Shown: one piece after another, positions 3,521 to 45,391 of the stretch
Numbering within the stretch: position 1 is the stretch's first letter
Layout of the letters: each line of letters opens with the position of its first letter
DNA from: Acidimicrobiia bacterium
GTDB lineage: Bacteria > Actinomycetota > Acidimicrobiia > Acidimicrobiales > JANYDT01
Assembly (NCBI GenBank): GCA_031418775.1
Contig: JANOJN010000079.1
Location: 2,320-66,319, forward strand
Length of the DNA stretch: 64,000 nucleotides
Direction of reading: 5' to 3'
Notes under the pieces: model-generated
What the model was told of the DNA's origin: nothing
The model's input: only the letters and a program-made list of their open reading frames with translations
The model's database searches: none
Translations under genes and position numbers: made by a program

Positions 3521-6283
3521 TCAGGAGTGATGGGCTACGGATCGGCGACGCAGTGCCTCGATCGACTCCGCAACAATACCCTCCGGGTCATCTTCGTGAT
3601 CCGCCAGCGAGAGCTGCTCCAAAAGCCGAGTGAGCCCGTCGCTTTCCCGTGAGAGCGCGAGAAGCGCGCAGGCACGCAGCCACGGGCGTCTCCAGACTCG
3701 CTGCTGATCGAGCGCGAGGTCCGTCAACTGCTCGGCCGGGGTGAGGGCGGACGGGCTGTCGATCTTGACGAGGCGGCCCAGGCGTTCAGCGGTGCTGAGG
3801 TCGGGCTCGAGAATCACGATCGCGGGACGGGAACGGGGGACGAGCGCGACCTCGAGCCACTCGACCGCGACCGCGTGCTGACGCCGGTCGCTCTGGGCGA
3901 ACTGGAACGAAACACGGTCGATGGCCTCTCGCCCGTGATGCAGCGAGAGCGCGCTCATCACGCGGGCGCGGGTGTCGGTCAGCTCATCCACGAGCGCGCG
4001 GCGAAGCTCGGAACAGTCGGCATGCTCGAGCACGGCGAGCGCACGGAGAATCCTCAGCGCGTGGTAGATCTCGGCGACAACCACATCACCGCTGACGGTG
4101 GCGGCCATCGACGAATCGTCCTGAACGAGGTCGTTGAGTGCGTTCACAATCGACAACCCGACATCTCGGTTCCGATGATTGACGTGCCCGACGAGCATCC
4201 CGGCCGCTTCGCTCGTGCCGATGTCTCGTGCCGCGCGAACAGCGAGCTCTTGACGGCGCGGCTCTCCCAAAACCCGAGCGGTCAGGCATCGATCAACCAT
4301 CGCCACACCGCGGTCCCCGGCTCGCACGATCGCATCGACGGCCGCAGACGCCGTCTCTCGACCGTCGAGCAGAGCGACAACAGCCGCTTCGAGGTGCTCA
4401 TGGTCGGGCCAGGCGACTGCGCCGAGAGCCGCAGCGGCTACCGCTGGATCTGTGTCGGCGAGGAGCGCCTCGATCATCGAGCCCGACTTCACCGCCAGCA
4501 CGGGGGCCGCGGTGAGCATCTCGGCTGCCTCCACGCGTCGGTCGGCGTCGGGATCCCGCGCCCTCGAAGCAATGATGTCATCAAGAACTCGATGGGCTTG
4601 GCAGTTCGAAAGCCCGCCGGCCGCTTTCGCTGCGGCCAGTCGGACACCGCGGTCGGCGTCGAGGAGGAGCGCGGCCACGCGTTCAGCATCGCTGTCCGTC
4701 GCGCCCGCCGAGATCGACCGTAGTGCCGCGGCCCGCACGTCCGCCCGCGGGTCGTGCAGCATGGTACGGGCGAGACCAACAGCGCTCGACGGGTCGGCCT
4801 CGGCGAGCAATTCCAGCGCCATCGCCGTGGCACCCTCGCGTTCGGACGCAACCATGCGCTCGAGGTGCTCGACGAACGTAGGGTGACCGGACCGTTGCAG
4901 CGCGGCCAGGCCGAGGCGGACGTCTCGTCGGTCGTCGCTCGCCAGCAACGCTTCGACGACGACGAGGGTTTCGGCGTCGTCGACGACGATTTCGCTCGGA
5001 TCGAGTTGACGGTGCCGAAGGGTGTCGAGGAGGTTGACCCCGTATCCTCGGTAGACACCAAGTGCGCATACGATCCAGAGTGCGAGGGTTACCACGACGA
5101 TCACCGGAATGGTGAGTCCCTTCGTCCCGACTGTCGCTCGGACGACGAGGAGTATGACCCCGGAGACACCGATGGCCAGAGGAACGGCAAGGCTTTCCAC
5201 CACGGCTTGCGATGCCGTTCTCTGCGCCGAGGGCACAGCCTGATACGCCGCGCCGACCGACGTGCGGGTCGTGCCGTCGGCGAGGACCATGTCGGACACC
5301 CGAGTGGCGACGACGAGGAGGAACACCACCGTCGACGCCGAACCCTGCACGACCGCCCCGGCAATCGACGCACCGACGAGCGAGAGCACGAACGCAGGAT
5401 TGGCGAAGAGGCCCAACCGAAGTCCGAAGCGTCCGATCAACAGACCCGCGAGGAGGATCAGGAAGATGATGTCGGCACCGTACGCGATCGCACTGAATCG
5501 GCCGACGAACGTCGCCAGATCTGTGCTGTTCGTGTAGCGGCGACCGGCGTGGTCGTACACCAGGAAGTCGAGCAGCGTGCTCTCCACCGCGGACAGCATC
5601 TGGAACACCATGATCAGGACGACGTAGCGATTGCGGAGCAGCGAGCGGAGCGAGGGCCGTGTCGTCGTCTTGTCGGATTCGTCCTCCACCTCGAGCGTCA
5701 GCAACTCTGCGGCGAAGGCCTTCGTCGTGAGCAGTACCAACGCAACGACGACAAGCGCCGAGGCGGCAGCTGTCGACAGAAGATGCTCCGCCCCACCGAG
5801 CGCCTCGAGGAGAGGCGCTCCGGAGAGGCCGCCGACGGCGAAGCCTGCGGCGAAGCCGGCGATCACCCGGGGATACATCACCTTCAACGAGCGCACATCG
5901 AGGAGGGCCCCGGCCTGTCCAACGATGAACATGAAGCCGACGGGAATGGTGATGGGGAGGACGACGAGCAGCGCGAAGGACATCCACGCGGCGTTGGCCA
6001 GCCAGAGACTCAACCACGCAATGGTGAGGGTGATGCTTGCGGCGATCATCACCCGCATCGCAACGGTGGCGAGCGGTCGGCGACGCAGCGCCCGCGCCAG
6101 CAGCACGCTCGCCACCGCGCCGACGCCGGCGGAAAGGATGTAGGTGACCGGAAGCAGTCCCGACCCGTAGGTCTGGAGGAAGATCGTGTTGGCGGGGACG
6201 GTGATCCATGCGATGACCAGACCGAGCGCCGCCGCCTGCGCAGTGAGCAGGGCGACCCGTCGGCGCGTCGTCGACGGCGTCAC
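3521..6283 (-). CDS. Multi-pass transporter-like membrane domain (MFS/Npt-like) fused to a long HEAT-repeat domain
   Basis: 920 aa. The N-terminal ~430 aa is a series of hydrophobic helices. The C-terminal half has Ala/Asp/Arg-rich helical repeats of HEAT/PBS-lyase type (HDPRADVRAAALRSIS, LDADRGVRLAAAKAAGG, ADTDPAVAAAALGAVA). The GTG start overlaps the upstream stop (GTGA). Confidence 0.7.
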   Translation of the reverse strand: MTPSTTRRRVALLTAQAAALGLVIAWITVPANTIFLQTYGSGLLPVTYILSAGVGAVASVLLARALRRRPLATVAMRVMIAASITLTIAWLSLWLANAAWMSFALLVVLPITIPVGFMFIVGQAGALLDVRSLKVMYPRVIAGFAAGFAVGGLSGAPLLEALGGAEHLLSTAAASALVVVALVLLTTKAFAAELLTLEVEDESDKTTTRPSLRSLLRNRYVVLIMVFQMLSAVESTLLDFLVYDHAGRRYTNSTDLATFVGRFSAIAYGADIIFLILLAGLLIGRFGLRLGLFANPAFVLSLVGASIAGAVVQGSASTVVFLLVVATRVSDMVLADGTTRTSVGAAYQAVPSAQRTASQAVVESLAVPLAIGVSGVILLVVRATVGTKGLTIPVIVVVTLALWIVCALGVYRGYGVNLLDTLRHRQLDPSEIVVDDAETLVVVEALLASDDRRDVRLGLAALQRSGHPTFVEHLERMVASEREGATAMALELLAEADPSSAVGLARTMLHDPRADVRAAALRSISAGATDSDAERVAALLLDADRGVRLAAAKAAGGLSNCQAHRVLDDIIASRARDPDADRRVEAAEMLTAAPVLAVKSGSMIEALLADTDPAVAAAALGAVAWPDHEHLEAAVVALLDGRETASAAVDAIVRAGDRGVAMVDRCLTARVLGEPRRQELAVRAARDIGTSEAAGMLVGHVNHRNRDVGLSIVNALNDLVQDDSSMAATVSGDVVVAEIYHALRILRALAVLEHADCSELRRALVDELTDTRARVMSALSLHHGREAIDRVSFQFAQSDRRQHAVAVEWLEVALVPRSRPAIVILEPDLSTAERLGRLVKIDSPSALTPAEQLTDLALDQQRVWRRPWLRACALLALSRESDGLTRLLEQLSLADHEDDPEGIVAESIEALRRRSVAHHS

Positions 6284-6924: not shown

Positions 6925-7859
6925 GCCATCAGGTACACGTCTCCTTCGCTGCCGACCACGACATCGATGTCGAGCGTGGACATCTCCTTCGCGATCCGGT
7001 CGAGTTCATCGTCAACACGGTCGGGATCGTGATGAAAGAGCACGAGTTTGCGTACGCCTGCTTGTCGGGCCAACGTGACGGCGTAGTCGATGGTCGAGTG
7101 ACCGAAGTGGCGTACCGCAGGAAACTCTTCCACCGTGTGCTGGGCATCGTGGAGGAGGAGATCGGCGCCTCGGCACAGCTCAATGGCAGCGTCGTGAACG
7201 ACACCGAGCCCGTCGTTGCCATCGCCCCACTCCAACGGCCCGTGGTCGGGCATGTAGACGACCGTGGCACCGTCATGTCGGACGCGGTAGCCGAACGTGC
7301 GGCCTCCCTTGTGCGGAATCTCCATCGCGAGCACGTCGAAGCCCTCGATCTTGTGCCACCCGGTTTCGAGCGAGTGGAACGACCACGCGCCGCGGAGGCC
7401 CGACGGACTGATCGGGAAGTGCGGTGGACTCATCATCTGGGCAAGAACAGCTTCCGCGTCGCCCTGCGCCGGGAGATAGAGGTCGACGCGGGCGTCGGGT
7501 CGGTCACCGGCGCGGAAGAATGGCAACCCGTAGACGTGATCCCAATGGAGATGCGAAAGCAGGATGGAGCCGTCGAACGGTTGGCCGTTGAGCACCTCGG
7601 TGAGGCGAGTGAGGCCGCTGCCCGCATCGAGGACGAGCGTGGGGGTGGAATTGCCACGCGCGATGGACACGCATGACGTGTTCCCGCCGTAGCGCACCTG
7701 ATCGGGCCCGGCCACGATGCGGGAGCCGCGGACGCCATGGAGTTGCAACCGCACGAGGGATCCCTTCGAGGTGAGGACCCTCGATCTTGGTCGATCGGGC
7801 GGCAGCTCCCGCGCCACAGACAGCAGCGACATTCCCGCATGACCCAGTGTGGGTAGCAT
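6921..7859 (-). CDS. Metallo-beta-lactamase-fold hydrolase (possible cyclic-nucleotide phosphodiesterase)
   Basis: HxHxDH motif (LLSHLHWDHVYGLPFF) plus downstream His/Asp ligand motifs (MPDHGP, LLLHDAQH, LFHHDP). ATG at 7859 is only 6 bp from the divergent cyclase start. An alternative GTG at 7754 is preceded by AAGGGA. Confidence 0.8.
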   Translation of the reverse strand: MLPTLGHAGMSLLSVARELPPDRPRSRVLTSKGSLVRLQLHGVRGSRIVAGPDQVRYGGNTSCVSIARGNSTPTLVLDAGSGLTRLTEVLNGQPFDGSILLSHLHWDHVYGLPFFRAGDRPDARVDLYLPAQGDAEAVLAQMMSPPHFPISPSGLRGAWSFHSLETGWHKIEGFDVLAMEIPHKGGRTFGYRVRHDGATVVYMPDHGPLEWGDGNDGLGVVHDAAIELCRGADLLLHDAQHTVEEFPAVRHFGHSTIDYAVTLARQAGVRKLVLFHHDPDRVDDELDRIAKEMSTLDIDVVVGSEGDVYLMA

Positions 7860-7865
7860 CGCCCA

Positions 7866-10800
7866 ATGGCGGATCGTCACCGTACTGACCATCCCCAGGC
7901 GTACATCCCCGGAGATCGGAGGCAAGCGCTCGCCGCAGGTGTCGAGATGCCCGACCGCGTCTCCGGGTCCGGGTTGTTCGCCGATGTGAGCGGTTTTACC
8001 GCGCTGACCGAGGCGCTGGCGACGGAACTGGGACCGCAGCGAGGTGTTGAAGAGCTGACCGCAGTGCTGGACCTCGTGTTCCAAGCCGTCATCGACGACA
8101 TCACCGACTTCGGCGGCCACGTCATCTACTTCAGCGGTGACGCGGTGACCTGTTGGCTCGATGGGGACGACGGGAGTCGGGCGGCGGCCGCTGCGCTCGC
8201 GGTCCAGCGGACGATGGACCGTGTAGGCCGCGTCTCGACACCAGGTGGTCGCGTCGTGGAACTCGGCATCAAGGTCGCGATTGCCGTCGGCCCGGCCCGT
8301 CGTTTCGTGGTCGGAGACCCCAACGTCCAGCTGATCGACGTGCTCGCGGGGGCGATCGTCGACGAGTTGGCCGATGCCGAGCAACTCGCCGAACGCGGCG
8401 AGATCGTGCTCGGCCCCTCGGCCGTCGCCGCGCTCGGCGAGCTCGCGGTCATTTCACGCGTTCCCCGAAAGCAGTCCACGGCCACGATCCTCGAGGGGCT
8501 CACGGACGTCGTGGTCCCCACCGAGCGTCCCCCCGAGCCAGTGGTGGACGAGGCCCTGGTACGCCCCTGGCTTCTGCCGGTCGTGCACGAACGCCTCAGC
8601 ACCGGTCGGGGTGAGTTCCTCACGGAACTCCGCTCGGCCTTCCCGATGTTCGTCCGTTTCGGCGGAATCGACGTCGACGCAGATGACGGGCCGAGCGAGC
8701 TCGACACGTTCGTGTCTCGGGCACAGGAAGTCCTCACAAGCTTCGGGGGGAACGTCCTTCAACTCATCCTCGGTGATAAGGGCGCGTACCTCTACGGCGT
8801 GTTCGGCTCGCCGGTCACCTACGGCGATGACGCGTCACGCGCCGCCGCCGCCGCCCTCGAACTTCGATCGGTCGCGGCCGACACCGCAGCGCGCGACCTC
8901 CAGATCGGCATCGGCCATGGACGGCTGCGTAGCGGAACCTACGGCCACTCGCTTCGCCGCACCTTCACGTGCCTCGGTGACGCGGTGAACCTCTCGGCCC
9001 GGTTGATGGCCGGCGCGGCGCCGGGAACGATTCGCGTAACCGATGACGTTCGACGGGAAGCCGGAGACCGCTTCCTCTGGGCGTCGGTCGGCACGTTTCC
9101 CGTCAAGGGCCGAGTCGAGCCGGTGCAGGTCTGGACCATCGAGGGGACCTCGTTCGCCACTCGGGAACGGGAGGTCCGCTACACGCTGCCTCTCGTCGGA
9201 CGCGATCAGGAGATGGCCGCGGTCGCCGAGGCCGCCGACGCTGTCCGGTCCGGCAGCGGACGCGTTGTGGCCATCTCCGCGGAAGCAGGTCGCGGGAAGT
9301 CCCGGCTCATCGCCGAAATCGTCCGCAAGCTTCGAGCTGACGGCATGCCGGTGGCGTTCGGTGAGGCTTCGGTCGTGGGCTCGACGGGTAGCTATGTGGT
9401 GTGGCGCGAGGTCGTCCACACGTTGCTCGGCATCGACGAGACGGGAAGCGACAGCGCCCGAATACGCGCGCTGCGCCGGTCACTCGCCGGCATCGGTCGG
9501 AGCCAGGCGCGCCGTGCGCCGCTGCTCGGGCCCCTGCTCGGCATCGATGTCCCCGACACCGATGTGACACGCGCCTTCGACGCCAAGCTCCGCAAGTCCT
9601 CCCTCGAGTCCCTCATCCTCGATGTGCTCGCCGAACGCACGCAGGCGTCGCCTCTGACCATCGTGCTCGAGGACTGTCATCGGATCGACGAACTCTCGCG
9701 CGATCTGCTCGAGGTCCTTGTTCGTGGTGCCGAGTCGCTTCCCGTCCTGTTCCTCCTGAACTACCGCCCCACCGGCAGTGCCGGGGCAGGCCTTGGTCTC
9801 GAATCGCTTCCGTTCTTCGCGGAGTTCGAGCTTTCCGAGCTCGGACCCGAGGCCGCTCGTACCGCTGCCGTGGCGAAGATCCACCAGCTGTACGGCGAGA
9901 GCGTCCGCCCGTCGATCACTCTGATCGACGCGGTCGTCACGAGAGCCGAGGGCAATCCGTTCTATCTGGAGCAGATTCTCGACTTCCTCCACGGCCGGGG
10001 ATTGGATCCCACCCGACCCGAACAGCTCGATGCCATCGATCTTCCGGCGAGCCTCCACAGTCTCCTCCTGAGTCGAATCGACACCCTCGACGAGGGGCCA
10101 CGCCGAACGGTGAAAGTTGCGAGCGTCCTCGGGCGCCGCTTCGAGGCTCCGACGGTCCGTCGCGTCTACCCGGACCTCGGTTCCGACACCGATGTGATCA
10201 CCCACCTGCGAGTCGGACGGTCGGCTGACCTCTTGGTGTCCGACGAGGACGAGCGGAGTTCCTGGCTGTTCCGGCACGTGATCACCCGTGAAGTGGCCTA
10301 TCAGAGCCTTCCCCACACCCTGCGGGTTGATCTGCACGAGCGGGCGGCCCTCGACCTGGAGGAGCGGGGTCCCGAGGTCGTAGAGAGCGAGCTCGACCTG
10401 GTCACGCACCACTGGTGCAGCAGCGACCGGCGGGACAAGCAGATCGAGTACCTGGGTCGAGCCGGCGAATCCGCCCAGGCCCGATACGCCAATGATGCCG
10501 CGGCTGACTACTTCGATCGGCTGGCGACGCTCGTCGACGGCGCAACCCGTGCCGATGTGCTCCTCCGGCTCGGGAAGGTGCTCGAACTGACCGGAGCGTG
10601 GGATCGCGCGCGGGCTGCGGGGACGGAGGCCACACTCCTGGCCCGTGACGCAGGCGACCCCACGCTCGAGGCATGGTGCGAGGTCTCACTGGCCGAGGTG
10701 GCCCGCAAACAGGCCCGGTTCGACGATGCCACCGACCACCTCGGCCGGGCCGTCGACTGCTTCGACCGGACCGACGACGATGCCGGTCGCGGCAAAGTGC

Positions 10801-28277: not shown

Positions 28278-29864
28278 ATGCGTCACTTCCCCAAGCCTGC
28301 CAATGTCCCTTCCGGAGCCACCTGGCTCCGTCACATCCTGCGTGGCCGCACGACAGGCCTCGTGCTCGGCACCATTCTCACCGGCGCCAGCCTTGTCCCG
28401 GCCATCGGTGCCCAGCCTGCGTCGGCCGCCGGTTACGACCCCACGACGGACCCGTACTCCATGGCCGCGGTCACCTCACAGACGGGTGCCACGGCGTGGT
28501 GGAACGCGGGCTTCACCGGGCGGGGCGTTGACGTCGCCGTCATTGATACCGGCGTGTCACCGGTTCCCGGCCTCGATGCGCCCGGCAAGATCATCCACGG
28601 CGCCGACCTCTCCCTGGAGTCCCAGGCGCCGAACCTGACCCGGCTCGACTCGAACGGCCACGGCACCTTCATGGCCGGGCTCATCGCGGGGAAGGACGCT
28701 GCTCTCACCGCGCCGTATGCCAACGCTCCCGCCACCGCGTATCGCGGGATTGCCCCGGATGCCCGCATTGTCAGCGTCAAGGTCGGCACCGCTGACGGAG
28801 GCGTCGACGTCACCCAGGTCATTGCCGCCATCGACTGGGTCGTCCAGAACAAGAACAACAACGGGCTGAACATCCGCGTGCTCAACCTGTCGTATGGGAC
28901 GAACTCGTTGCAGGACGCCGCCGCCGACCCGCTCTCGTATGCGGTGGAACAGGCGTGGAAGCGCGGCATCGTGGTCGTGGTTGCCGCCGGGAATACCGGT
29001 TACCAGAGGGGTAAGGGCGCTCCTGGCTTGGCCAACCCCGCATACAACCCGTTCGTCATCGGTGTCGGCGGCTACGACACGATGGGCACGGCCCTCCCGA
29101 ACGACGATGTGATGGGCGCCTACTCGGCGAGCTCGACCGGATGTGGGGCCAAATGCAAGAACCCTGACTTCGTTGCCGTGGGTTCGCACCTCCAGGGCCT
29201 TCGGGTTCCGAACGGGCACCGGGACGTGACGAGCCCTGAGGGCCGGATCGATGCCCGCTACTTCCGGGGTTCCGGGACTTCGCAGGCCGCCGCCATCGCG
29301 TCCGGCACGATCGCCCTGATCCTGCAGAAGTACCCGAATCTGACCCCGGACCAGGTCAAGCGCTTCATCGCCAACAACGGCAAGAAGGTTCCGGGGGCCG
29401 ACAGCCAGGCTCAGGGCGGCGGCGAGATCGACCTCGTCAAGCTCGCCGGCCTGACTCCGTCAGCCTTCACGCAGACCTTCTTCCCGTCCAAGGGCGGCGG
29501 CACGATCGAGGACGCCCGCGGTTCTGATCACCTCACGGCCAACGGCGTGACCCTCACCGGCGAGAAGGACATCTTCGGGCGGGCCATCGATACGAAGGCA
29601 CTGGCTTTGGCGCAGGCGGCCGGATCCTCCTGGTCCGGTGGCACCTGGAACGGCTCGACGTGGTCGGGCAGTTCGTGGTCGGGCTCGTCGTGGTCGGGCA
29701 GCTCATGGTCGGGTAGCTCGTGGTCCGGATCGTCATGGTCGGGATCCTCCTGGTCGGGGTCCTCGTGGTCAGGTAGTTCGTGGTCGGGCTCGTCGTGGTC
29801 GGGCTCGTCGTGGTCGGGCAGCTCCTGGTCCGGCTCGTCGTGGTCCGGCGGTACCTGGAACTGA
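28278..29864 (+). CDS. Secreted subtilisin-like S8 serine protease with a C-terminal Trp-pentapeptide repeat tail
   Basis: Catalytic triad motifs VAVIDTGV (Asp), HGTFMAGLIAG (His) and GTSQAAAIASG (Ser). N-terminal signal-like segment. GGAG lies 6 nt before ATG 28278. Confidence 0.9.
   Translation: MRHFPKPANVPSGATWLRHILRGRTTGLVLGTILTGASLVPAIGAQPASAAGYDPTTDPYSMAAVTSQTGATAWWNAGFTGRGVDVAVIDTGVSPVPGLDAPGKIIHGADLSLESQAPNLTRLDSNGHGTFMAGLIAGKDAALTAPYANAPATAYRGIAPDARIVSVKVGTADGGVDVTQVIAAIDWVVQNKNNNGLNIRVLNLSYGTNSLQDAAADPLSYAVEQAWKRGIVVVVAAGNTGYQRGKGAPGLANPAYNPFVIGVGGYDTMGTALPNDDVMGAYSASSTGCGAKCKNPDFVAVGSHLQGLRVPNGHRDVTSPEGRIDARYFRGSGTSQAAAIASGTIALILQKYPNLTPDQVKRFIANNGKKVPGADSQAQGGGEIDLVKLAGLTPSAFTQTFFPSKGGGTIEDARGSDHLTANGVTLTGEKDIFGRAIDTKALALAQAAGSSWSGGTWNGSTWSGSSWSGSSWSGSSWSGSSWSGSSWSGSSWSGSSWSGSSWSGSSWSGSSWSGSSWSGSSWSGGTWN
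29625..29861 (+). repeat. In-frame 15-bp tandem repeat (~16 units) encoding (S/G)(S/T)W(S/N)G
   Basis: SSWSG GTWNG STWSG, then (SSWSG)x12, then GTWN. Ser codons vary between units (tcc, tcg, tca, agc, agt). Confidence 0.95.
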
Positions 29865-29891
29865 CCAAGTCAGTCGACCCAATCGAACACG

Positions 29892-29919
29892 AAGGAGCCG
29901 GCCGCAAGGCCGGCTCCTT
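29892..29919 (+). terminator. Intrinsic terminator-like hairpin after the S8 protease gene
   Basis: Perfect 12-bp stem AAGGAGCCGGCC / GGCCGGCTCCTT with a GCAA loop, followed by a short T run (TTT). Confidence 0.6.
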
Positions 29920-30015
29920 TAGCCGTTCACACACGCGTTCAGGTGCCGAATCGCAAGTTCATTGCGATCGTGTTCTGCGGCCGGCGTCAGAAGCGGAAGT
30001 GTACGGTCGCGGCCC

Positions 30016-30609
30016 ATGGAGTCGCCAGAACGAATCGCATGGATCGACACGATCGCCGAGGACGCAGCGGAGGGTCTGCTCCGAGAGCTTTACGACGCGG
30101 AACGCGAGAAGTCCATCGGCGTTGTCGACAACATCTTGAAGGTGCATGCTCTCCACCCCGAGACAATGCGTGCACATATCGATCTCTACCGGACCGTGAT
30201 GTACGGGCGTTCCGGTGTGACCCGCATCGAGCGGGAGATGATCGGTGTGGTCGTGTCAGAAATCAACAGCTGCCACTACTGACTTGCCCACCACGCGGCC
30301 GGTCTGGTCCGCCTCTGCAAGAACGTAGCTCTCGTACGTACGCTTATTGATGACCACGAGGCCGCCGAGATCACCGACCGTCAACGCGCCATCCTCGCCT
30401 ACGCCGTTCGCCTGACGGTCGCCCCGGGCGCGATGAACGAAGATTCACTCGCTCCGCTGCGGGACAACGGCCTGTCGGACCGTGACATCCTCGACGTCAA
30501 TCAGGTGACTGCGTACTTCGCCTACGTGAACCGGGTCGCCGACGGTCTCGGCGTGGTGACCGATGCGTACGCGGAAGACGCCTACCGGAGCATCGTCGCC
30601 CCCGACTGA
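30016..30609 (+). CDS. AhpD/carboxymuconolactone-decarboxylase-like peroxidase-related protein with in-frame TGA (30280-30282): candidate selenoprotein, alternatively a pseudogene
   Basis: The frame stays open for 108 codons after the TGA and ends at TGA 30607-30609. The motif reads VSEINSCHY-[TGA]-LAHH, where the family has C-x-x-C-x-x-x-H. The downstream half has no start codon of its own and shows protein-like codon usage. Confidence 0.6.
30295..30312 (+). promoter_or_regulatory. SECIS-like stem-loop 12 nt downstream of the in-frame TGA
   Basis: GCGGCC-GGUCU-GG(U)CCGC: 6 bp stem with one bulged U and a GGUC-containing apical loop. Confidence 0.4.
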
Positions 30610-30636
30610 GCAGGCCCGTTCCGTCGACGGTGCCGC

Positions 30637-32046
30637 TCAGAGGTCAGGATGCCCGGTGGAGAACCCGCTGGCTGCCTCATAGGCGGCACCGGCGGAGAGC
30701 AACGTCGCTTCGGACAACGCCGGCCCGATCAGCTGGAATCCGAGCGGTGAGCCCTCGGCCGCACGGCCCATCGGGAGCGTGAGTGACGGGACGCCGGCGA
30801 GGTTGAACGGAATCGTGTAGCGCATGAAGCCGGCCGAGTCGACGGGCGACGAACCCACCGACGCCTTCATCTGCGACGCCAGCAGGGGAGCGATGGGGAG
30901 GACCGGGGCGACCATCATGTCAACCTCCGCGAACACCCGGTGCAGCGCTCCACGGAACTCGCGGCGCCAAATAGCCACCGTGGCGTAATCCACCGCGGTG
31001 GAAGCGCGGCCGAGATCGAGGAGGTCGCGGTATGGCTGGCCGTAGCTGGCACGCTCCGACGGGTAGCTCGCGGCGTGGGAGATGGCCGCTTCGGCAGCCG
31101 CCGCCATCACTGCACGCGGCAGGATCGCGTCCACCTCGGGCACCCGTACATCGACGATGACAGCCCGCTGATCCTTCAACAGGGCAATGGCCGCGGTGAG
31201 CGCCGAGAACGTCGGACCGTCCACGTCGCCCAAGGCATACGCCTGATCGACACCGATCCGGACACCGTGAAGCCGCGCCGCTAGCGCTGCCGATGCGCAG
31301 TCGCCCACGGGTTCCGTCAGCGATGTGACGTCGAGAGGGTCGTGCCCGGCCATGGCCTCGTACATCAGGGCAACGTCGAGGACCGAGCGGGCCATCGGAC
31401 CGACGTGATCGAACGTGTCGGACAACGGAAACACGCCGTGGCGGCTCACCCGACCCCACGTCGGCTTCAAGCCGACCAGATGGTTGGCGGCAGACGGAAA
31501 GCGGATCGACCCCGCGGTATCGGTGCCGACGGCCCCGTACGCCAGACCGGCGGCCACCGAAACGCCCGAGCCGCTTGACGATGCACCCGACCAGCGATCC
31601 TCGGCCCACGGGTTGACCGGCGTGGCGACATCGGGATGATGGGATCCCCACGCGCCTTCGGTCAGCTGTGCCTTGCCGATAATGATGGCGCCGGCGTCCT
31701 GCAGCCTCGTCACCACCGTGGCGGTGTCGGTGGACGAGAATCCCGTCGAGAAAAACCCACCGGCACGGGTCGGCGTGCCGGCCATCGCGCACAGATCTTT
31801 GACGGCGACCGGGACGCCGTGCAGCGGGCCGAGCGCGTCCCCGCGGGCTCTACGGGCGTCAGCGTCCTCCGCGTCCCGCAACGCATCGTCGCCTCTTACG
31901 AACGCGAACGCGTGCAGGCGTGGATCGAGGCGCGTGATTCGGTCGAGTGTGTGTTGCGTGACCTCGGTGGCGGAGAGGCCGCCCGAACGGATATCGGCCG
32001 CTACGTCAGCGAGATGGCGGTAGTGGAGTTCCTCAGCGGCGGCCAC
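30637..32046 (-). CDS. Amidase (amidase-signature family)
   Basis: VAVKDL catalytic Lys region and GASSSGSGVSVAAGL signature. Likely GTG start at 32046 with GAAAGGA upstream (alternative GTG at 32088). The 567-aa ORF in the track would overlap the upstream ABC gene. Confidence 0.85.
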   Translation of the reverse strand: MAAAEELHYRHLADVAADIRSGGLSATEVTQHTLDRITRLDPRLHAFAFVRGDDALRDAEDADARRARGDALGPLHGVPVAVKDLCAMAGTPTRAGGFFSTGFSSTDTATVVTRLQDAGAIIIGKAQLTEGAWGSHHPDVATPVNPWAEDRWSGASSSGSGVSVAAGLAYGAVGTDTAGSIRFPSAANHLVGLKPTWGRVSRHGVFPLSDTFDHVGPMARSVLDVALMYEAMAGHDPLDVTSLTEPVGDCASAALAARLHGVRIGVDQAYALGDVDGPTFSALTAAIALLKDQRAVIVDVRVPEVDAILPRAVMAAAAEAAISHAASYPSERASYGQPYRDLLDLGRASTAVDYATVAIWRREFRGALHRVFAEVDMMVAPVLPIAPLLASQMKASVGSSPVDSAGFMRYTIPFNLAGVPSLTLPMGRAAEGSPLGFQLIGPALSEATLLSAGAAYEAASGFSTGHPDL

Positions 32047-40389: not shown

Positions 40390-42228
40390 TTAGAGCTGCG
40401 CGACCGACCGGGCCAACAACAGCACTCCGGCGCCGGCGATCGCGAACCCCGACACCAGCGGCAGGGCGTTGGTGACGGCGTAGAGACGGGCTCCGGCCGG
40501 GGTGCTGAGTCGGGACGACCACCCGCGGACGCCGCGTTCGAAACGGACGATGAGCAGACCGGCACCGACGAGGGTTGCGGCGAGCCCGATCCCGTAGGCG
40601 ACGACGAGGGCTACCCCGAACGGCACTCGGCCAACGGCGATCGCCCCGAGCAGGACGACGAGCGCTGACGGGCTCGGAACGAGGCCGCCGGCGAGTCCCA
40701 TCATCACCAGCTCGCGCCGACGCACGACAGAACCGGGTGCCGGGAGGACGTGGTCGTGGGACCAACCCCCGTGGGCGTGGCTGGTGACGATGAACCGCGG
40801 GTCGTCCGGGTGGGCGCGTGTGGCAGCGTCGGCGGTGAGTGCCGAAGCGCGGCCAGGCGTGTCGACATGGGCATGGGCATCGGCAAGGGGGTGGGGGTCG
40901 TGGAGAACCGACGCGTCGTCGTGGTGCGCGACTGCGTGCTCGTGGTCATGCGGTTCCGGGTGCGGATGATCGTGCCCGTGGTCATGGTCATGTGGGTGCG
41001 GATGATCGTGCCCGTCGTCATGCGCGTGGTCCTGGTCTTTCGGGTGTGGATGGGCGTGCCCGTGGTCATGGTCTTGCGGGTGCGGGTGCGGGTGCGGATG
41101 ATCGTGCCCTCCCGTCCATCCCGCGACGCCATGACGACCGGGTCGGCGCCAGGCGGCCAGCCGAGTCCGCAACAACGTGAACCCGACGCCGATCACCAGG
41201 ACGCCCGACACGACGCTCGCCCATCGCACCGACCGATCCGCGGAAACCACCGTGGTGGCCGACACGAGCACACCGAGCACCATGATGCCGACGGTGTGCG
41301 TCGCCGCCACCGTGCCACCGATGGCGATGATGTCCGCAGTTCGTCCTCGACGTCCGAGTGCGTACGCCGCAATGATGGTCTTGCCGTGTCCGGGCGCCAA
41401 TGCGTGAAGACCCCCGAGAACGACGGCGAGCAGCATGGCTCCGGCGGCGAAGGGCAGCGTGACCTTGCGGTGGTCGAGCAGAGATTGGAATCGCTGCGTC
41501 AGACCGTCGTTGCCCCGATTGGTGGGCGCAGGTGACGCCGTGGCCGAGTCGGAAGCAGACGCCATTTCCGCAGCTGCACCGCGAGACACTTTGAACGATG
41601 CCCCGAGTTGCCGAAGCGGAGCGCTCACGGCTTCCTTCGGATAGCGCAGCAGGAGATCGGTGGGGGAGACGGTCGCCACCTCGCCGTCGATGCCGACACC
41701 GTTGCCTGATACGGAGATCTCCCGCCAACCGAGACGATCGGGGTAGTTGCGGTCGACAATGTTCACAGACGCCGGAGATGACTCGCCCGACGTGGCATGC
41801 AGCCGACACTCGAGCCGGAGCGTCGTCAGGCCCGCCTGACCCGAAGGGAACGAGAGCTGAGCTCCACCCGTCGGTGCGAGTGGCACAGGGACTCCGCTCC
41901 GGGTGATGTCCAGTGACTGAGCGATGGATTTGCAGCGCTCGTCACGCCAACGATCGGCGGCGATGGGCGGAACAGGACCGCTCGATGCGCCGAGTTCCTG
42001 GCGAATCTTCAGGGCCGGGATCTCGGCAAGGTCGACGACATACACAACGTCGACGTGTCCGAGCGTAAGCGTGACATGTGTCGCCGTGTTCGTGGTGAAA
42101 TTCCCGAGCGGATGAGCGATCGCGGCATCGGGGCGAAAGGCCAGCGCACTGACAATCCCGACGAGCAGTGCGATACGCCGGGCCGATTGACTGCGTCGGC
42201 GGACTACGAGCGTGAGCGTTGACATCAT
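40390..42228 (-). CDS. NicO/RcnA-like metal transporter with an N-terminal extracytoplasmic domain and a very long His-rich loop
   Basis: LHALAPGHGKT signature and a His/Asp/Pro-rich segment (GHDHPHPHPHPQDHDHGHAHPHPKDQDHAHDDGHDHPHPHDHDHGHDHPHPEPHDHEH). Its start overlaps the TPR gene stop (AUGAUG). Confidence 0.75.
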   Translation of the reverse strand: MMSTLTLVVRRRSQSARRIALLVGIVSALAFRPDAAIAHPLGNFTTNTATHVTLTLGHVDVVYVVDLAEIPALKIRQELGASSGPVPPIAADRWRDERCKSIAQSLDITRSGVPVPLAPTGGAQLSFPSGQAGLTTLRLECRLHATSGESSPASVNIVDRNYPDRLGWREISVSGNGVGIDGEVATVSPTDLLLRYPKEAVSAPLRQLGASFKVSRGAAAEMASASDSATASPAPTNRGNDGLTQRFQSLLDHRKVTLPFAAGAMLLAVVLGGLHALAPGHGKTIIAAYALGRRGRTADIIAIGGTVAATHTVGIMVLGVLVSATTVVSADRSVRWASVVSGVLVIGVGFTLLRTRLAAWRRPGRHGVAGWTGGHDHPHPHPHPQDHDHGHAHPHPKDQDHAHDDGHDHPHPHDHDHGHDHPHPEPHDHEHAVAHHDDASVLHDPHPLADAHAHVDTPGRASALTADAATRAHPDDPRFIVTSHAHGGWSHDHVLPAPGSVVRRRELVMMGLAGGLVPSPSALVVLLGAIAVGRVPFGVALVVAYGIGLAATLVGAGLLIVRFERGVRGWSSRLSTPAGARLYAVTNALPLVSGFAIAGAGVLLLARSVAQL

Positions 42229-43643
42229 GTGCTCCTGGTGGTCGGGGTGGCGGCTTGTTGGGCGGGGGCGGGGGATGGCAGCGCGGGAACAGGAAGCCCA
42301 AGTCGGTCGGCGAGCGAGCGAACGGCGCGCGTCTGGAGCGGGGACGACCATGGATTACGGATCGCTGCGGCGAGCTCACGACGGGCCGCCGCAAGATCGC
42401 CCGTTGCGGCAAAGACCTCGGCCGCGTGCCACCGAGTGGAGGAGACACCGGGTTGGGTCGCCACCGCCGCGCGTGCGTAGGGCAGGGCCTCGACCGGGCG
42501 GCCGGAGACGAACAACGACCATGCCATCGCGTCGTTGGTGAAGATCGTGCGACGTTCCGCGTACGCCCGTCGGGCCGCCCGCAGCGCCGCAGGCGCCGAG
42601 CCCGAGCCACGGTCGGCGAGCAGGATCGCCAACTCGGCGTCAACGACCGCACCGTTCGCCTCGAACAGGGCGACGCTCGCATCGACGAGCTGATCCGTGG
42701 CTGTTGCCGTCTTCTGATCACCACTCGCTCGCGCCAGATCGGCCCGGAGCCCGAGTGCTCCCGGAAGCGGAATCCTTTCGACGAGACGATCAAGGATCGT
42801 CGCGGCTCGGCGTGAATCATCTCGGGCCATGGCGACCCGAGCCGAACCGAGCATCGCCGTTCCATTTGTCGGTTCGATCCGGAGTGACTGCTCATAGGTG
42901 CGGCCAGCGGCGGCGAGGTGGCCCGACTCGAGAAGCACGTCGCCGAGATACGCAAGCGCGATGGCACGATCGATCGATCCAGTCGGCGCGGCTGACACGG
43001 CCTGGCGCATGGCGATCTCTGCGCCGAGCAGATCACCGGTGAGCTGGCGGCGATAGGAGAGCCGTGAGAGCGTGGCGACATTCGGGCGCTCCTCGACGAG
43101 CGACTCGATCTGTGCAAAGGCCTGTTCGTAGTTCCCTAGTTCAATATCGGCATCGAACAGGGAAATGCGTCCGTCCAACGCGTCTGGTCGTTGCCGGACG
43201 ACGTCGGTAGCGAGCGAGCGAGCATCCTGGAATCGATGCCGGGCAAGCGCAAGCGTGGCCTTGGTCCCCAGCAGCTCCGGGGTGGAGCCGAGGCGCTTCT
43301 CGGCTTGCCGCAACGCCGATTCGGCAAGTGGATAGAAAGCGGGATCGGCCGTCTCGAAGGCCCGCCGGACATAGGCGGCACCCAGCTGACGCCAGTCGTC
43401 ACCGTTGCTCGGGTTGGAGCGGGTGGCCGACTCGAGCCGGGTGATGCGGTCGACGGTGGAGAGGCTTCGCGACGCCGGCTTGGCCAGGCCCGGTGCCAGA
43501 GTCGATGGGGATGCGGGCGAGACCGTCGCTGCTGAGGCTGCTGCGCCCGGAATCGCTGCCAATGAGATCATAAGCACACCTATGACTGACCGGATGCCGG
43601 AGGTGATGCGGGTGCCGGACCGCACGTGGCTGGTGCATCGCAC
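42225..43643 (-). CDS. Secreted TPR-repeat protein
   Basis: Likely GTG start at 43643 with GGAAGGA 8 nt upstream. Signal-like RITSGIRSVIGVLMISLAAIPGAAASA. The remainder is TPR-like helical repeats. Confidence 0.7.
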   Translation of the reverse strand: MRCTSHVRSGTRITSGIRSVIGVLMISLAAIPGAAASAATVSPASPSTLAPGLAKPASRSLSTVDRITRLESATRSNPSNGDDWRQLGAAYVRRAFETADPAFYPLAESALRQAEKRLGSTPELLGTKATLALARHRFQDARSLATDVVRQRPDALDGRISLFDADIELGNYEQAFAQIESLVEERPNVATLSRLSYRRQLTGDLLGAEIAMRQAVSAAPTGSIDRAIALAYLGDVLLESGHLAAAGRTYEQSLRIEPTNGTAMLGSARVAMARDDSRRAATILDRLVERIPLPGALGLRADLARASGDQKTATATDQLVDASVALFEANGAVVDAELAILLADRGSGSAPAALRAARRAYAERRTIFTNDAMAWSLFVSGRPVEALPYARAAVATQPGVSSTRWHAAEVFAATGDLAAARRELAAAIRNPWSSPLQTRAVRSLADRLGLPVPALPSPAPAQQAATPTTRST

Positions 43644-43750
43644 AAGAAGTTCCTTCCACAGGGATGAGGGTGCGAACAGTGCGCCGCTTCGGGAGAACTC
43701 CGCTCGTCCGTCTGCGCCGAGCGCTCGCTTGGGTGTACCAGTCAGGCAAA

Positions 43751-43784
43751 GCCCTTCGCCGCATGGGGGGTTGCGGCGAAGGGC
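43751..43784 (-). terminator. Strong hairpin (possible attenuator or partial terminator) between the DUF4331 and TPR genes
   Basis: Perfect 12-bp GC-rich stem (gcccttcgccgc / gcggcgaagggc) with a 10-nt loop. On the transcribed strand it is followed by UUUG. Confidence 0.45.
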
Positions 43785-43795
43785 TCGTGCCAGTG

Positions 43796-43835
43796 TTGAA
43801 CGTGGCGCCAACTCCCCAGCGGGCGCCGCGTTCAA
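43796..43835 (-). other. Second strong intercistronic hairpin
   Basis: 14-bp stem (13 Watson-Crick pairs plus one G-U) with a 12-nt loop. Confidence 0.45.
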
Positions 43836-43930
43836 ACAAGCGGGACGGACAACGCCGAGGCGCGTCGGTTGTTCATCGCGCGCTCGCGACACGCGAACGC
43901 GAGCACTCCGGTCGTTGTCCGTCTTCATGA

Positions 43931-45319
43931 TCAGGCCTTGATCGGCTCGTAGGCGCGGTCGGCGCCGTATCCGTCACGGGGCAGGCCGACATACGGGAAC
44001 ACGTTCAGGAGTTCCCGATCGTTGGCGTCGACACCGTCACCGAGCGCATTGTTCGGGAATCCGGTGAAGGTCTTGTCGCTCACCAACGGGTTGGCACCGG
44101 CCACCACCTGGAGGGCGGTGTCGACGACATCATCGGTGAGGTTGCGGCCGTTGGGGAACGACGACTTGCCGATGCCGGTGTTGAGGCGGAGCATCTCGGA
44201 CGGGGCCGAGAACGTCTTCGACTTGTTCAGACCGGGGATACCCGTGAGGAAGATCACGGCGAGGTCCTGGCGGCCCGCGAAGGCCGCCGGGAGCCCGGCG
44301 TCGACGCTGGTCGGCACCTTGATGCCGGCCGGGCCGTAGAGGAACGGGATCAACTTGCCGAGCTCAGGGTCGAGGACGGACTTGGCGAACTGGCCGTCCT
44401 TGTCCGGGCTCGACGCATTGAACGTGTCCTTCTGCCCGACGGGGATGACGACCTCGTTGACGAGCGGGTTGCCAAGACGGGCAACCTGCTTCCAGTTGCC
44501 GTTGCCGTTGCCTTCACCGACACGACGTGACGTGGTCGCCCAGACACCGACGACGGGATCCCCGGCGTTGGTGATGCGACCGCTCGGAACCTGCAACACG
44601 ATCGAGCTGATGTTCTGCCCGGCGAGGTAGTCGATTCCCGCCGCAGTCGGCTGCTTGATGACGTGGAAGGAGTTCAGCGGACGCAGACCACCGAGGTCGA
44701 AGATCGCCCCGAGGTCGGCGAAGAACGGGTCATCACGTGGACCGGCAAAGACCCGGATCGCGCCCTGTTCCAGCTGATGGCTCGCCCCGGCGACGGTCGT
44801 CCGATAGTTCGGCGTCGAGCGGGTGGCGCCGACGTAGGCCGGCGCGGTCAGAAGGTTCTGTCCGATCGGCTTGCTTTCCTTTCCGCGAACTTCCGTCAGC
44901 GTGTAGGTCTGCTTGCGGTTGAGGTCCGCGTCATCGACCGACGTCACCTGGTTCGTGTTGTAGAGGAACGTGTTCGGGTTCGAATACGTCGTCTTGAAAC
45001 GGAACTGGTACTTGATGTCGGCAACGGCATCGCCGTTGTTGTCGATGTTGAGCTCATAGAGCACGTCGTCACCGAACTTCGAGAAGTTCGGTCCGCCACC
45101 GGGATTCTGGAACGGGTCGGTGTTGATGACGAACGTCGTCGAGTCCGGGCGATCCGGGCTCACGAAGGCGTAGAGGTCGGTGAGGTCGGCGACCGGATCC
45201 TCGGTGATCGCCGGCGCCTCCCGATGGCTCGATGCCGTGGTCGGTGCGGCAAGGCTGAATCCGAGCGCAGCGGCCAGGCCGATGGCGGGAATGCCCTGTC
45301 GAAGGAGTGAACGTTTCAT
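43931..45319 (-). CDS. Secreted DUF4331-family protein
   Basis: Signal peptide MKRSLLRQGIPAIGLAAALGFSLAAPTTA, then the family-typical mature N-terminus SSHREAPAITEDPVADLTDLYAF. ATG at 45319. Confidence 0.8.
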   Translation of the reverse strand: MKRSLLRQGIPAIGLAAALGFSLAAPTTASSHREAPAITEDPVADLTDLYAFVSPDRPDSTTFVINTDPFQNPGGGPNFSKFGDDVLYELNIDNNGDAVADIKYQFRFKTTYSNPNTFLYNTNQVTSVDDADLNRKQTYTLTEVRGKESKPIGQNLLTAPAYVGATRSTPNYRTTVAGASHQLEQGAIRVFAGPRDDPFFADLGAIFDLGGLRPLNSFHVIKQPTAAGIDYLAGQNISSIVLQVPSGRITNAGDPVVGVWATTSRRVGEGNGNGNWKQVARLGNPLVNEVVIPVGQKDTFNASSPDKDGQFAKSVLDPELGKLIPFLYGPAGIKVPTSVDAGLPAAFAGRQDLAVIFLTGIPGLNKSKTFSAPSEMLRLNTGIGKSSFPNGRNLTDDVVDTALQVVAGANPLVSDKTFTGFPNNALGDGVDANDRELLNVFPYVGLPRDGYGADRAYEPIKA

Positions 45320-45391
45320 GACTCTCGTTTCTGTTGCGGGTGGGGGGTTGTGGTGCTGGGGATCAGGGGCCCGCTGGCCGAGGCGCACTCG

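Follow-up and report, generated by a model that had tools for sequence, protein, structure and literature searches.

A predicted AhpD-like selenoprotein gene with a conserved in-frame TGA codon in a high-GC Acidimicrobiia genome

An AhpD-like gene with TGA in its redox motif

The stretch of DNA analysed here, in the following called the window, comprises 64,000 nucleotides from an Acidimicrobiia bacterium (contig JANOJN010000079.1 of assembly GCA_031418775.1) and has a GC content of 66.6%. On its plus strand lies a gene of the AhpD/carboxymuconolactone decarboxylase (CMD) type whose reading frame is crossed by one TGA codon. A first-pass annotation had described this locus as a candidate selenoprotein gene, with an in-frame TGA inside a single AhpD-like open reading frame (ORF), and both the frame and the coordinates could be confirmed from the sequence. 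The frame extends from ATG at 30016 to TGA at 30607-30609, its single internal stop is the TGA at 30280-30282, and the joined product has 197 amino acids with the TGA position (codon 89) counted in. The GC content at third codon positions is 0.75 before this TGA and 0.80 after it. The start codon at 30016 agrees with the 88-amino-acid gene calls in ten public assemblies as well as with the M-x-W-I N-termini of homologs. It had also been claimed that the stretch downstream of the TGA possesses no start codon of its own; this is correct for the beginning of the stretch, near which there is none, but not for the stretch as a whole, since an internal ATG exists at 30433. Gene callers stop at the TGA, which gives the 88-amino-acid piece, and then begin a fragment of 58 amino acids at ATG 30433. 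In public assemblies the locus is unannotated or split.

The gene and the codons of its redox motif are:

30016..30609, plus strand: complete gene of a predicted AhpD-like selenoprotein (TIGR01926 peroxidase-related enzyme), 197 codons including selenocysteine (Sec) codon 89; single frame, hidden Markov model (HMM) match, PDB 3c1l with E=1.2e-34
30280..30282, plus strand: UGA codon 89, predicted to encode Sec, at the second Cys of CxxC (Cys133 of the Mycobacterium tuberculosis protein MtAhpD); TGA conservation, alignment with Cys forms and PDB homologs, TIGR00777 offset
30271..30273, plus strand: Cys86 codon TGC, the partner in C-x-x-U (Cys130 of MtAhpD); read from the sequence, invariant Cys (TGC/TGT) in the 17 closest sequences
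30235..30237, plus strand: Glu74 codon, putative proton-relay Glu (Glu118 of MtAhpD, Glu36 of PA0269); by alignment, invariant E in relatives
30292..30294, plus strand: His93 codon, putative proton-relay His (His137 of MtAhpD); by alignment, the HH after the Sec codon being invariant in all relatives

For the protein and HMM searches with the 197-residue product, the TGA was replaced by Cys. The product reaches 159.2 bits with TIGR01926, the model for a peroxidase-related enzyme of the AhpD/CMD superfamily (cut-off 81.8 bits), over residues 9-182 of 197, and it matches the Pfam CMD domain with 44.6 bits against 23 (E=1.5e-11). The assignment to the peroxidase-related CMD/AhpD family, which had been made from the letters alone, is thereby borne out. 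The protein does not belong to AhpD proper: the score with TIGR00777 is 19 bits and thus below the cut-off of 191.95, and the active site alone is held in common. It also stays below the cut-off of NF041238, the AhpD_rel_CFYUT (seleno)protein (45.8 bits, cut-off 175), which represents a separate AhpD-related selenoprotein family.

The sequence around the TGA reads ...VSEINS-C86-H-Y-TGA-L-A-H-H-AAGLVRL.... In the homologs of known structure 3c1l, 2pfx and 6k40, which were detected with E-values of 1e-34 to 1e-28, the CxxC motif aligns with C-H-Y-TGA. The best of these matches, Mlr4105 (PDB 3c1l, E=1.2e-34), has the motif INHCYYCLTAH, which aligns with INSCHY-TGA-L and gives the arrangement E74...C86-H-Y-U89-L-A-H92-H93. 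The TGA therefore occupies the position of the second Cys of CxxC. This is where the first-pass annotation had placed the stop, and the alignments with PDB homologs and with Cys forms agree with each other on this point. The match to TIGR00777 is ungapped and places residues 59-97 on positions 103-141 of the profile (offset 44); it equates E74, C86, Y88, U89 and H93 with Glu118, Cys130, His132, Cys133 and His137 of MtAhpD. A proton relay of Glu, Cys, His or Tyr, Cys and His is known for AhpD of M. tuberculosis and for PA0269 of Pseudomonas aeruginosa, and the spacing E-12-C-x-Y-U-x3-H in the window fits this relay (PMC3141380).

Conservation of the TGA codon and of the hairpin behind it

When the C-terminal halves of Sec forms were used to scan GTDB genomes, each species being represented by one genome, 46 related loci were obtained. 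The motif is intact in 44 of them, and all 44 carry TGA at the codon in question. If the window and a further locus (L055) are added, there are 46 sequences, all with TGA, which corresponds to 45 of 45 related loci when the window is not counted; as the search peptides were drawn from the Sec clade, this count shows that the clade is uniformly Sec, and not that the whole family is. The source metagenome-assembled genomes (MAGs) of the Sec loci belong to Acidimicrobiia, Chloroflexota (Anaerolineae, Chloroflexia, Thermomicrobiales and Thermoflexus), Acidobacteriota (Pyrinomonadaceae and Blastocatellia), Calditrichota and Halanaerobiales. The closest relatives are found in Acidimicrobiia MAGs (L003-L006; JANPDB01, JANLRD01, JANMYF01 and JANPFX01), with amino acid identities of 93%, 89%, 89% and 84% over the C-terminal 108 residues. 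In the two remaining scanned loci, L043 (Halanaerobiaceae) and L047 (Bacillota), no more of the gene than its C-terminal part can be recognised, and the upstream frame is ridden with stop codons and lacks a C-x-x-TGA motif; they may represent either true pseudogenes or forms that have diverged.

The first-pass annotation had suggested looking at whether orthologs carry Cys or TGA at this codon. While the motif-keeping loci all have TGA, Cys is found in its place in more distant full-length homologs (45-51% identity), for example as CAYC/CDYC-VNHH in the protein records P0010, P0019 and P0024. About 30 other full-length Cys forms exist, and at the DNA level the codon is TGT or TGC in L053 and L056. 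In a neighbor-joining tree the Cys forms stand apart from several Sec clades, the tree being too crude to give the direction of the Cys/Sec exchange. The homology search also returned many fragments of 108-115 amino acids (60-73% identity) which either end in ...C(H)Y or begin with (V/M)AHHAAGLVRL. These fragments are gene calls that were broken exactly at the Sec codon.

Both halves of the gene are under purifying selection. In eight pairwise comparisons, the ratio of nonsynonymous to synonymous substitution rates (dN/dS) lies at 0.05-0.18 over the 80 codons that precede the TGA and at 0.12-0.36 over the 96 codons that follow it, with dS values of 0.25-1.7, and the selection on the downstream half indicates that this half is translated. 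A decay of the frame in relatives, which had been named as an observation that would speak for a simple pseudogene, was not seen; the downstream half is intact. As to a sequencing error, nine or more ENA or Logan samples have yielded at least ten separately assembled contigs that encode precisely the N-terminal product of 88 amino acids, and codon 89 is TGA in 10 of 10 assemblies of the same species. These assemblies differ from the window at three sites at most: two synonymous sites, which flank the TGA on either side, and a third that affects the last residue. The TGA is therefore retained in ten independent assemblies while single-nucleotide polymorphisms segregate elsewhere in the gene.

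Twelve nucleotides after the TGA begins a hairpin that resembles a bacterial selenocysteine insertion sequence (SECIS). It had been pointed out by the first-pass annotation at exactly this place, and RNAfold recovers it as the minimum-energy structure. It consists of GCGGCC (30295-30300), the loop GGUCU (30301-30305), GG (30306-30307), a bulged U (30308) and CCGC (30309-30312). The two elements that can be distinguished are:

30295..30312, plus strand: predicted bacterial SECIS upper stem-loop within the coding sequence, presumed SelB site; RNAfold, RNAalifold, covariation and frozen synonymous sites
30283..30321, plus strand: tentative extension by a lower stem around the upper hairpin, with CUUGC (30283-30287) paired to GCAAG (30317-30321); RNAfold

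The lower stem is seen only in the window and in L003, L004 and L006; the other clades do not have it in the same register. In contrast, every Sec form folds an upper hairpin, which begins 14-16 nucleotides after the U of UGA. Its stem varies by clade: besides GCGGCC/GG-U-CCGC there are UCGGCC/GGCCGA and UCGCGC/GCGCGA, GGAGCC/GCUCC, GCGGAG/CUCCGC, GGAGC/GCUCC and, as an AT-rich case, GCGAA/UUCGC. Within a group of 26 sequences the loop GGUCU is invariant, RNAalifold gives the same stem, and 91% of the cells are paired, compared to 22-49% after a shift of the 3' arm by 1-3 nucleotides. Compensatory changes in this group concern pair 25:42 (GC to UA in four sequences) and pair 28:39 (GC to CG in one). 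None of 500 shuffles reached the observed covariation score. The strong conservation of the element leaves room for no more than modest covariation.

The synonymous sites lend further support. In 17 sequences with the peptide HHAAGLVRL, the codons at +5 to +10 after the TGA are GCG GCC GGT CTG GTC CGC in 15-17 of 17, whereas equally conserved Arg, Gly, Val, Ser, Leu and Ala residues elsewhere use three to five synonymous codons each. Two distinct Cys-form genes possess only a 3-bp hairpin at the place of the SECIS. The earlier claim of a SECIS-like hairpin is thus strengthened by a conserved position, by compensatory changes and by frozen synonymous sites.

Regarding the tree, the Chloroflexota loci L011, L012, L014, L022 and L030 (including Thermoflexus hugenholtzii) nest among those of Acidimicrobiia (L007-L018), and they carry the identical GCGGCC-GGUCU-GGUCCGC SECIS as the Acidimicrobiia loci. 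This suggests that gene and SECIS might have been transferred together between the phyla.

Reading of the UGA codon

Judged from these comparisons, it is very probable that the gene is intact and encodes an AhpD-like thiol/selenol oxidoreductase of 197 residues from the TIGR01926 subfamily, with UGA codon 89 read as Sec. The interpretation given in the first-pass annotation is thus supported, as every prediction within reach of the analysis spoke for a selenoprotein. From this we infer that Sec is actually inserted, that SelB binds the hairpin and that residue 89 has a catalytic role. A ribosome arriving at UGA89 would meet the stem-loop at 30295-30312, whose loop GGUCU would recruit the complex of SelB, GTP and Sec-tRNA(Sec). 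Sec would be inserted in place of termination, and translation would go on to the true stop at 30607. In the folded protein, C86-H-Y-U89 would form the redox centre on the AhpD active-site helix, beside Glu74, Tyr88 and His93. The nucleophilic attack would come from the selenolate at position 89, which would form a selenenyl-sulfide with Cys86 while a peroxide or an oxidised partner protein is reduced.

Several results weigh against a decoding of this UGA as Sec. In the window and the 46 related loci, ARAGORN found no tRNA-Sec and tblastn with SelA, SelB and SelD of E. coli found no homolog. The sel genes are usually unlinked, so that their absence near the locus says little. The stability of the hairpin alone is no better than that of dinucleotide shuffles (minimum free energy (MFE), z = +0.43), and 26 in-frame TGAs in the window are followed by a G-C-rich hairpin with a loop that starts with GG. 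The significance of the hairpin therefore derives solely from the comparison with relatives. The Rfam models SECIS_2 to SECIS_5, applied to 29900-30700 with E <= 10, gave no match on the hairpin at 30280-30320. The bacterial SECIS models of Rfam are narrow, so that this miss says little as well. The sole match, to SECIS_4, lies on the minus strand at 29916-29947 (14.6 bits, gathering score 38, E=5.4), and we judge it to be due to chance. Moreover, the bulged U17 of the 5' arm, which is critical in the SECIS of the E. coli gene fdhF, is not present in the window, where nucleotide 17 is a paired C. Finally, our literature search did not turn up an experiment that proves the incorporation of Sec into a member of the AhpD-like CxxU family.

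Concerning the host, the use of Sec had been regarded as notable in a high-GC actinobacterium. This was overstated, since the Sec trait is documented in several high-GC Actinobacteria (PMC5029168) and selA, selB, selC and selD are reported for all 84 complete genomes of Actinomarina, which belongs to the same class Acidimicrobiia (bioRxiv 10.64898/2026.04.03.716425). Within Acidimicrobiia, the literature search found a report on Sec only for the marine Actinomarinales.

Three other explanations have to be weighed. It is very unlikely that near-cognate suppression or a reassigned code leads to the insertion of a standard amino acid (Trp, Cys or Gly) at the UGA. Some public records do give W at the codon (P0001, P0006), and no gene of the Sec machinery was found in the window. 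However, in P0006, the record whose DNA was read, the codon is TGA and translation table 11 does not yield the stored protein, so the W in this record comes from the gene caller. Furthermore, TGA is also the normal terminator of the selenoprotein gene itself and of the S8 peptidase gene upstream, and the genetic code is therefore the standard one. The position is that of a catalytic Cys and hence a classic site of Cys/Sec exchange, and the SECIS-like hairpin is conserved, with GGUC at the position it has in fdhF.

Still less probable is a true termination at the TGA, which would result in two polypeptides, the N-terminal piece of 88 amino acids and a re-initiated C-terminal piece, or in the N-terminal piece alone. 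It is true that GTG or ATG follows the TGA in some relatives (P0030, P0033 and others) and that a second ORF is called there. But the codon after the TGA varies freely among relatives (CTT, CTA, CTG, ACA, ACG, ATT, ATC, GTA, GTG and ATG, among others) and often is no start codon, as is the case for CTT in the window. Termination would also cut the helix with the CxxC active site in the middle of the motif, and it would leave the conserved RNA hairpin with its frozen synonymous sites without a role. To a nonsense pseudogene or a sequencing or assembly error, with the 108 downstream codons as untranslated remnants, we attach practically no probability: gene callers do stop at the TGA and the window shows no genes for Sec decoding, but the identical TGA in ten independent assemblies and in 45 loci across phyla, together with a downstream half whose frame shows no decay, stands against it, since neither a pseudogene nor an error would stay conserved at one codon over dS > 1.

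If UGA89 is read as Sec, the gene marks its Acidimicrobiia-type host, which is known only from metagenome assemblies, as a Sec user, and it adds a redox selenoenzyme to the predicted defence of this host against peroxides or disulfide stress. Beyond the single gene, it appears rather likely that there is a clade of AhpD-like proteins that is apparently obligately Sec, shared among MAGs of Acidimicrobiia, Chloroflexota, Acidobacteriota, Calditrichota and Halanaerobiales, and with the SECIS loop GGUC at nucleotides 22-25 as in fdhF. This distribution is probably a result of horizontal transfer. If such a clade exists, the decoding of Sec would be widespread among high-GC Acidimicrobiia beyond the Actinomarinales, and the SelB contact by G23 and U24 would have been kept across very distant phyla. 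The 45 Sec forms with their five stem variants constitute a useful natural data set on the co-evolution of SECIS and peptide; one example is Gly-Leu, which is forced at codons +7/+8 as it is in FdhH.

Neighbourhood, database records and comparison with known systems

Upstream of the selenoprotein gene lies the gene of an S8 peptidase with 528 amino acids (28278-29864, plus strand). Between the two genes we found one further feature:

29891..29920, plus strand: 13-bp G-C-rich hairpin AAGGAGCCGGCCG..CGGCCGGCUCCUU, probable terminator of the S8 peptidase gene; MFE -32.5 kcal/mol, z = -6.4

This hairpin is followed only by UUU, and a scan for consensus terminators with a T-run makes no call. Probably it is a terminator with a short T-tract, in which case the selenoprotein gene would form a separate transcription unit. 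Downstream follow a convergent amidase gene (30637-32046, minus strand) and a Liv-type ABC transporter operon. The synteny with the S8 peptidase and the amidase is common only to the closest Acidimicrobiia MAGs, and among the related loci no neighbour that might hint at the function is conserved across phyla.

In three of the four closest MAGs, a second S8 paralog, which is 64-67% identical to that of the window, is situated between the selenoprotein gene and the amidase gene (L003 at approximately 4099-5400, L005 at approximately 7215-8516 and L006 at approximately 1020-2321); it is absent in the window and in L004. In the Cys-form loci L053 and L056, the CMD gene directly precedes a large S8 peptidase gene. 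The recurring adjacency of CMD and S8 peptidase genes may be a coincidence. The C-terminus of the S8 peptidase in the window is encoded by a tandem repeat of 15/30 nucleotides (29652-29849, approximately 12.7 copies, 77% match) that specifies (S-S-W-S-G)n. Two public metagenome contigs with the S8 gene end at positions corresponding to 29905 and 29957 of the window, and it is possible that the repeat breaks short-read assemblies here.

Elsewhere in the window, four other in-frame TGA candidates (at least 50 flanking open codons, high GC content at third positions) turned out to be either neighbouring genes that share a frame or antisense shadows. At 43928-43975 (plus strand), two in-frame TGAs are succeeded by the perfect hairpin GGCGC-GGUCG-GCGCC, at the junction of the minus-strand ORFs 42225-43928 and 43931-45388. 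The plus-strand frames at this place probably are shadows that do not code for protein, with the hairpin as a structure of the junction or of an intergenic region.

The records of related genes in public databases deserve some attention. Trp is given at the Sec codon in P0001 (...CHYW...) and in P0006 (...CKYW...), the latter from L055, 818-1357, where the DNA has TGA. The P0001 cluster also contains N-terminal fragments of 84 amino acids named 'peroxidase', from Marinimicrobia, on 192 contigs. These Trp and fragment records represent a systematic mis-annotation of the AhpD-like selenoprotein family. In P0049, P0050, P0063, P0072 and P0075 the C-terminal halves run in frame into other domains, namely glyoxalase/PhnB, DUF1349 (PF07081), another CMD domain that has a CRYC motif itself, a SnoaL-like domain and NAD(P)H-hydrate epimerase. 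Such fusions may exist in nature or may be artefacts of gene calling. The lesson for annotation is that gene callers split such a gene (88 and 58 amino acids in the window) or mistranslate the codon as Trp, and dozens of public records are concerned.

The family itself is not new. An 'AhpD-like protein, COG2128, CXXU' was predicted as a new selenoprotein family from the Sargasso Sea data in 2005, with 27 sequences (Zhang, Fomenko & Gladyshev, PMC1088965). In the GOS data the AhpD-like family was the fourth most abundant one, with 299 Sec and 902 Cys forms (Zhang & Gladyshev 2008, PMC2398784), and a review from 2026 contains it in a table as 'AhpD-like protein, TIGR01926, CxxU' (PMC13188914). 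The statement in the first-pass annotation that AhpD-like selenoproteins had been predicted in metagenomic surveys was thus right. The gene in the window is a new, unannotated member of a family whose CxxU motif has been catalogued since 2005, and it raises no new biological question. It resembles this family in belonging to TIGR01926, in having the predicted Sec at the second Cys and in possessing a stem-loop within the ORF with G in a small apical loop, and marine Marinimicrobia members (the P0001 cluster) are approximately 52% identical to its product. However, the definition of the family rests mostly on reads of marine origin, whereas the copy in the window originates from a genome with 66.6% GC.

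The Cys-containing TIGR01926 proteins of known structure (3c1l, 2pfx, 2oyo, 2prr and 6k40) align over residues ~16-180 with E-values of 1e-34 to 1e-21, and their motif INxCxYC-L-x-x-H matches the window residue for residue. In contrast to the window gene they have Cys at the second position and no SECIS, and most of them are structural-genomics entries described as uncharacterised or putative. With MtAhpD and PA0269 the product shares the active site Glu-12-Cys-x-(His/Tyr)-Cys-x3-His, its Tyr at the third position being as in PA0269. It is, however, no ortholog of AhpD, as the low TIGR00777 score indicates, and there is no adjacent ahpC.

The closest known model for the hairpin is the SECIS of fdhF from E. 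coli, whose minimal element comprises nucleotides 15-31 and starts 11 nucleotides after UGA. There are differences: the stem in the window begins at nucleotide 16 after a spacer of 12 nucleotides, and its loop has 5 nucleotides instead of the GGUC tetraloop of fdhF. The first-pass annotation had compared the two elements on account of their loop and a bulged U. The second half of this comparison has to be modified, since the bulge in the window is U29 on the 3' arm, while U17 of fdhF is on the 5' arm; in some clades (the Thermomicrobiales-type variants) U29 is missing. The first half holds. Both hairpins are located inside an ORF, both have GGUCUG at nucleotides 22-27 counted from the U of UGA, and both encode Gly-Leu at codons +7/+8. 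According to PMC8659212, which summarises Liu et al. 1998, G23 and U24 of fdhF are essential for SelB binding, and as GGUC occupies nucleotides 22-25 in both elements, these SelB contacts coincide in fdhF and in the AhpD-like gene of the window.

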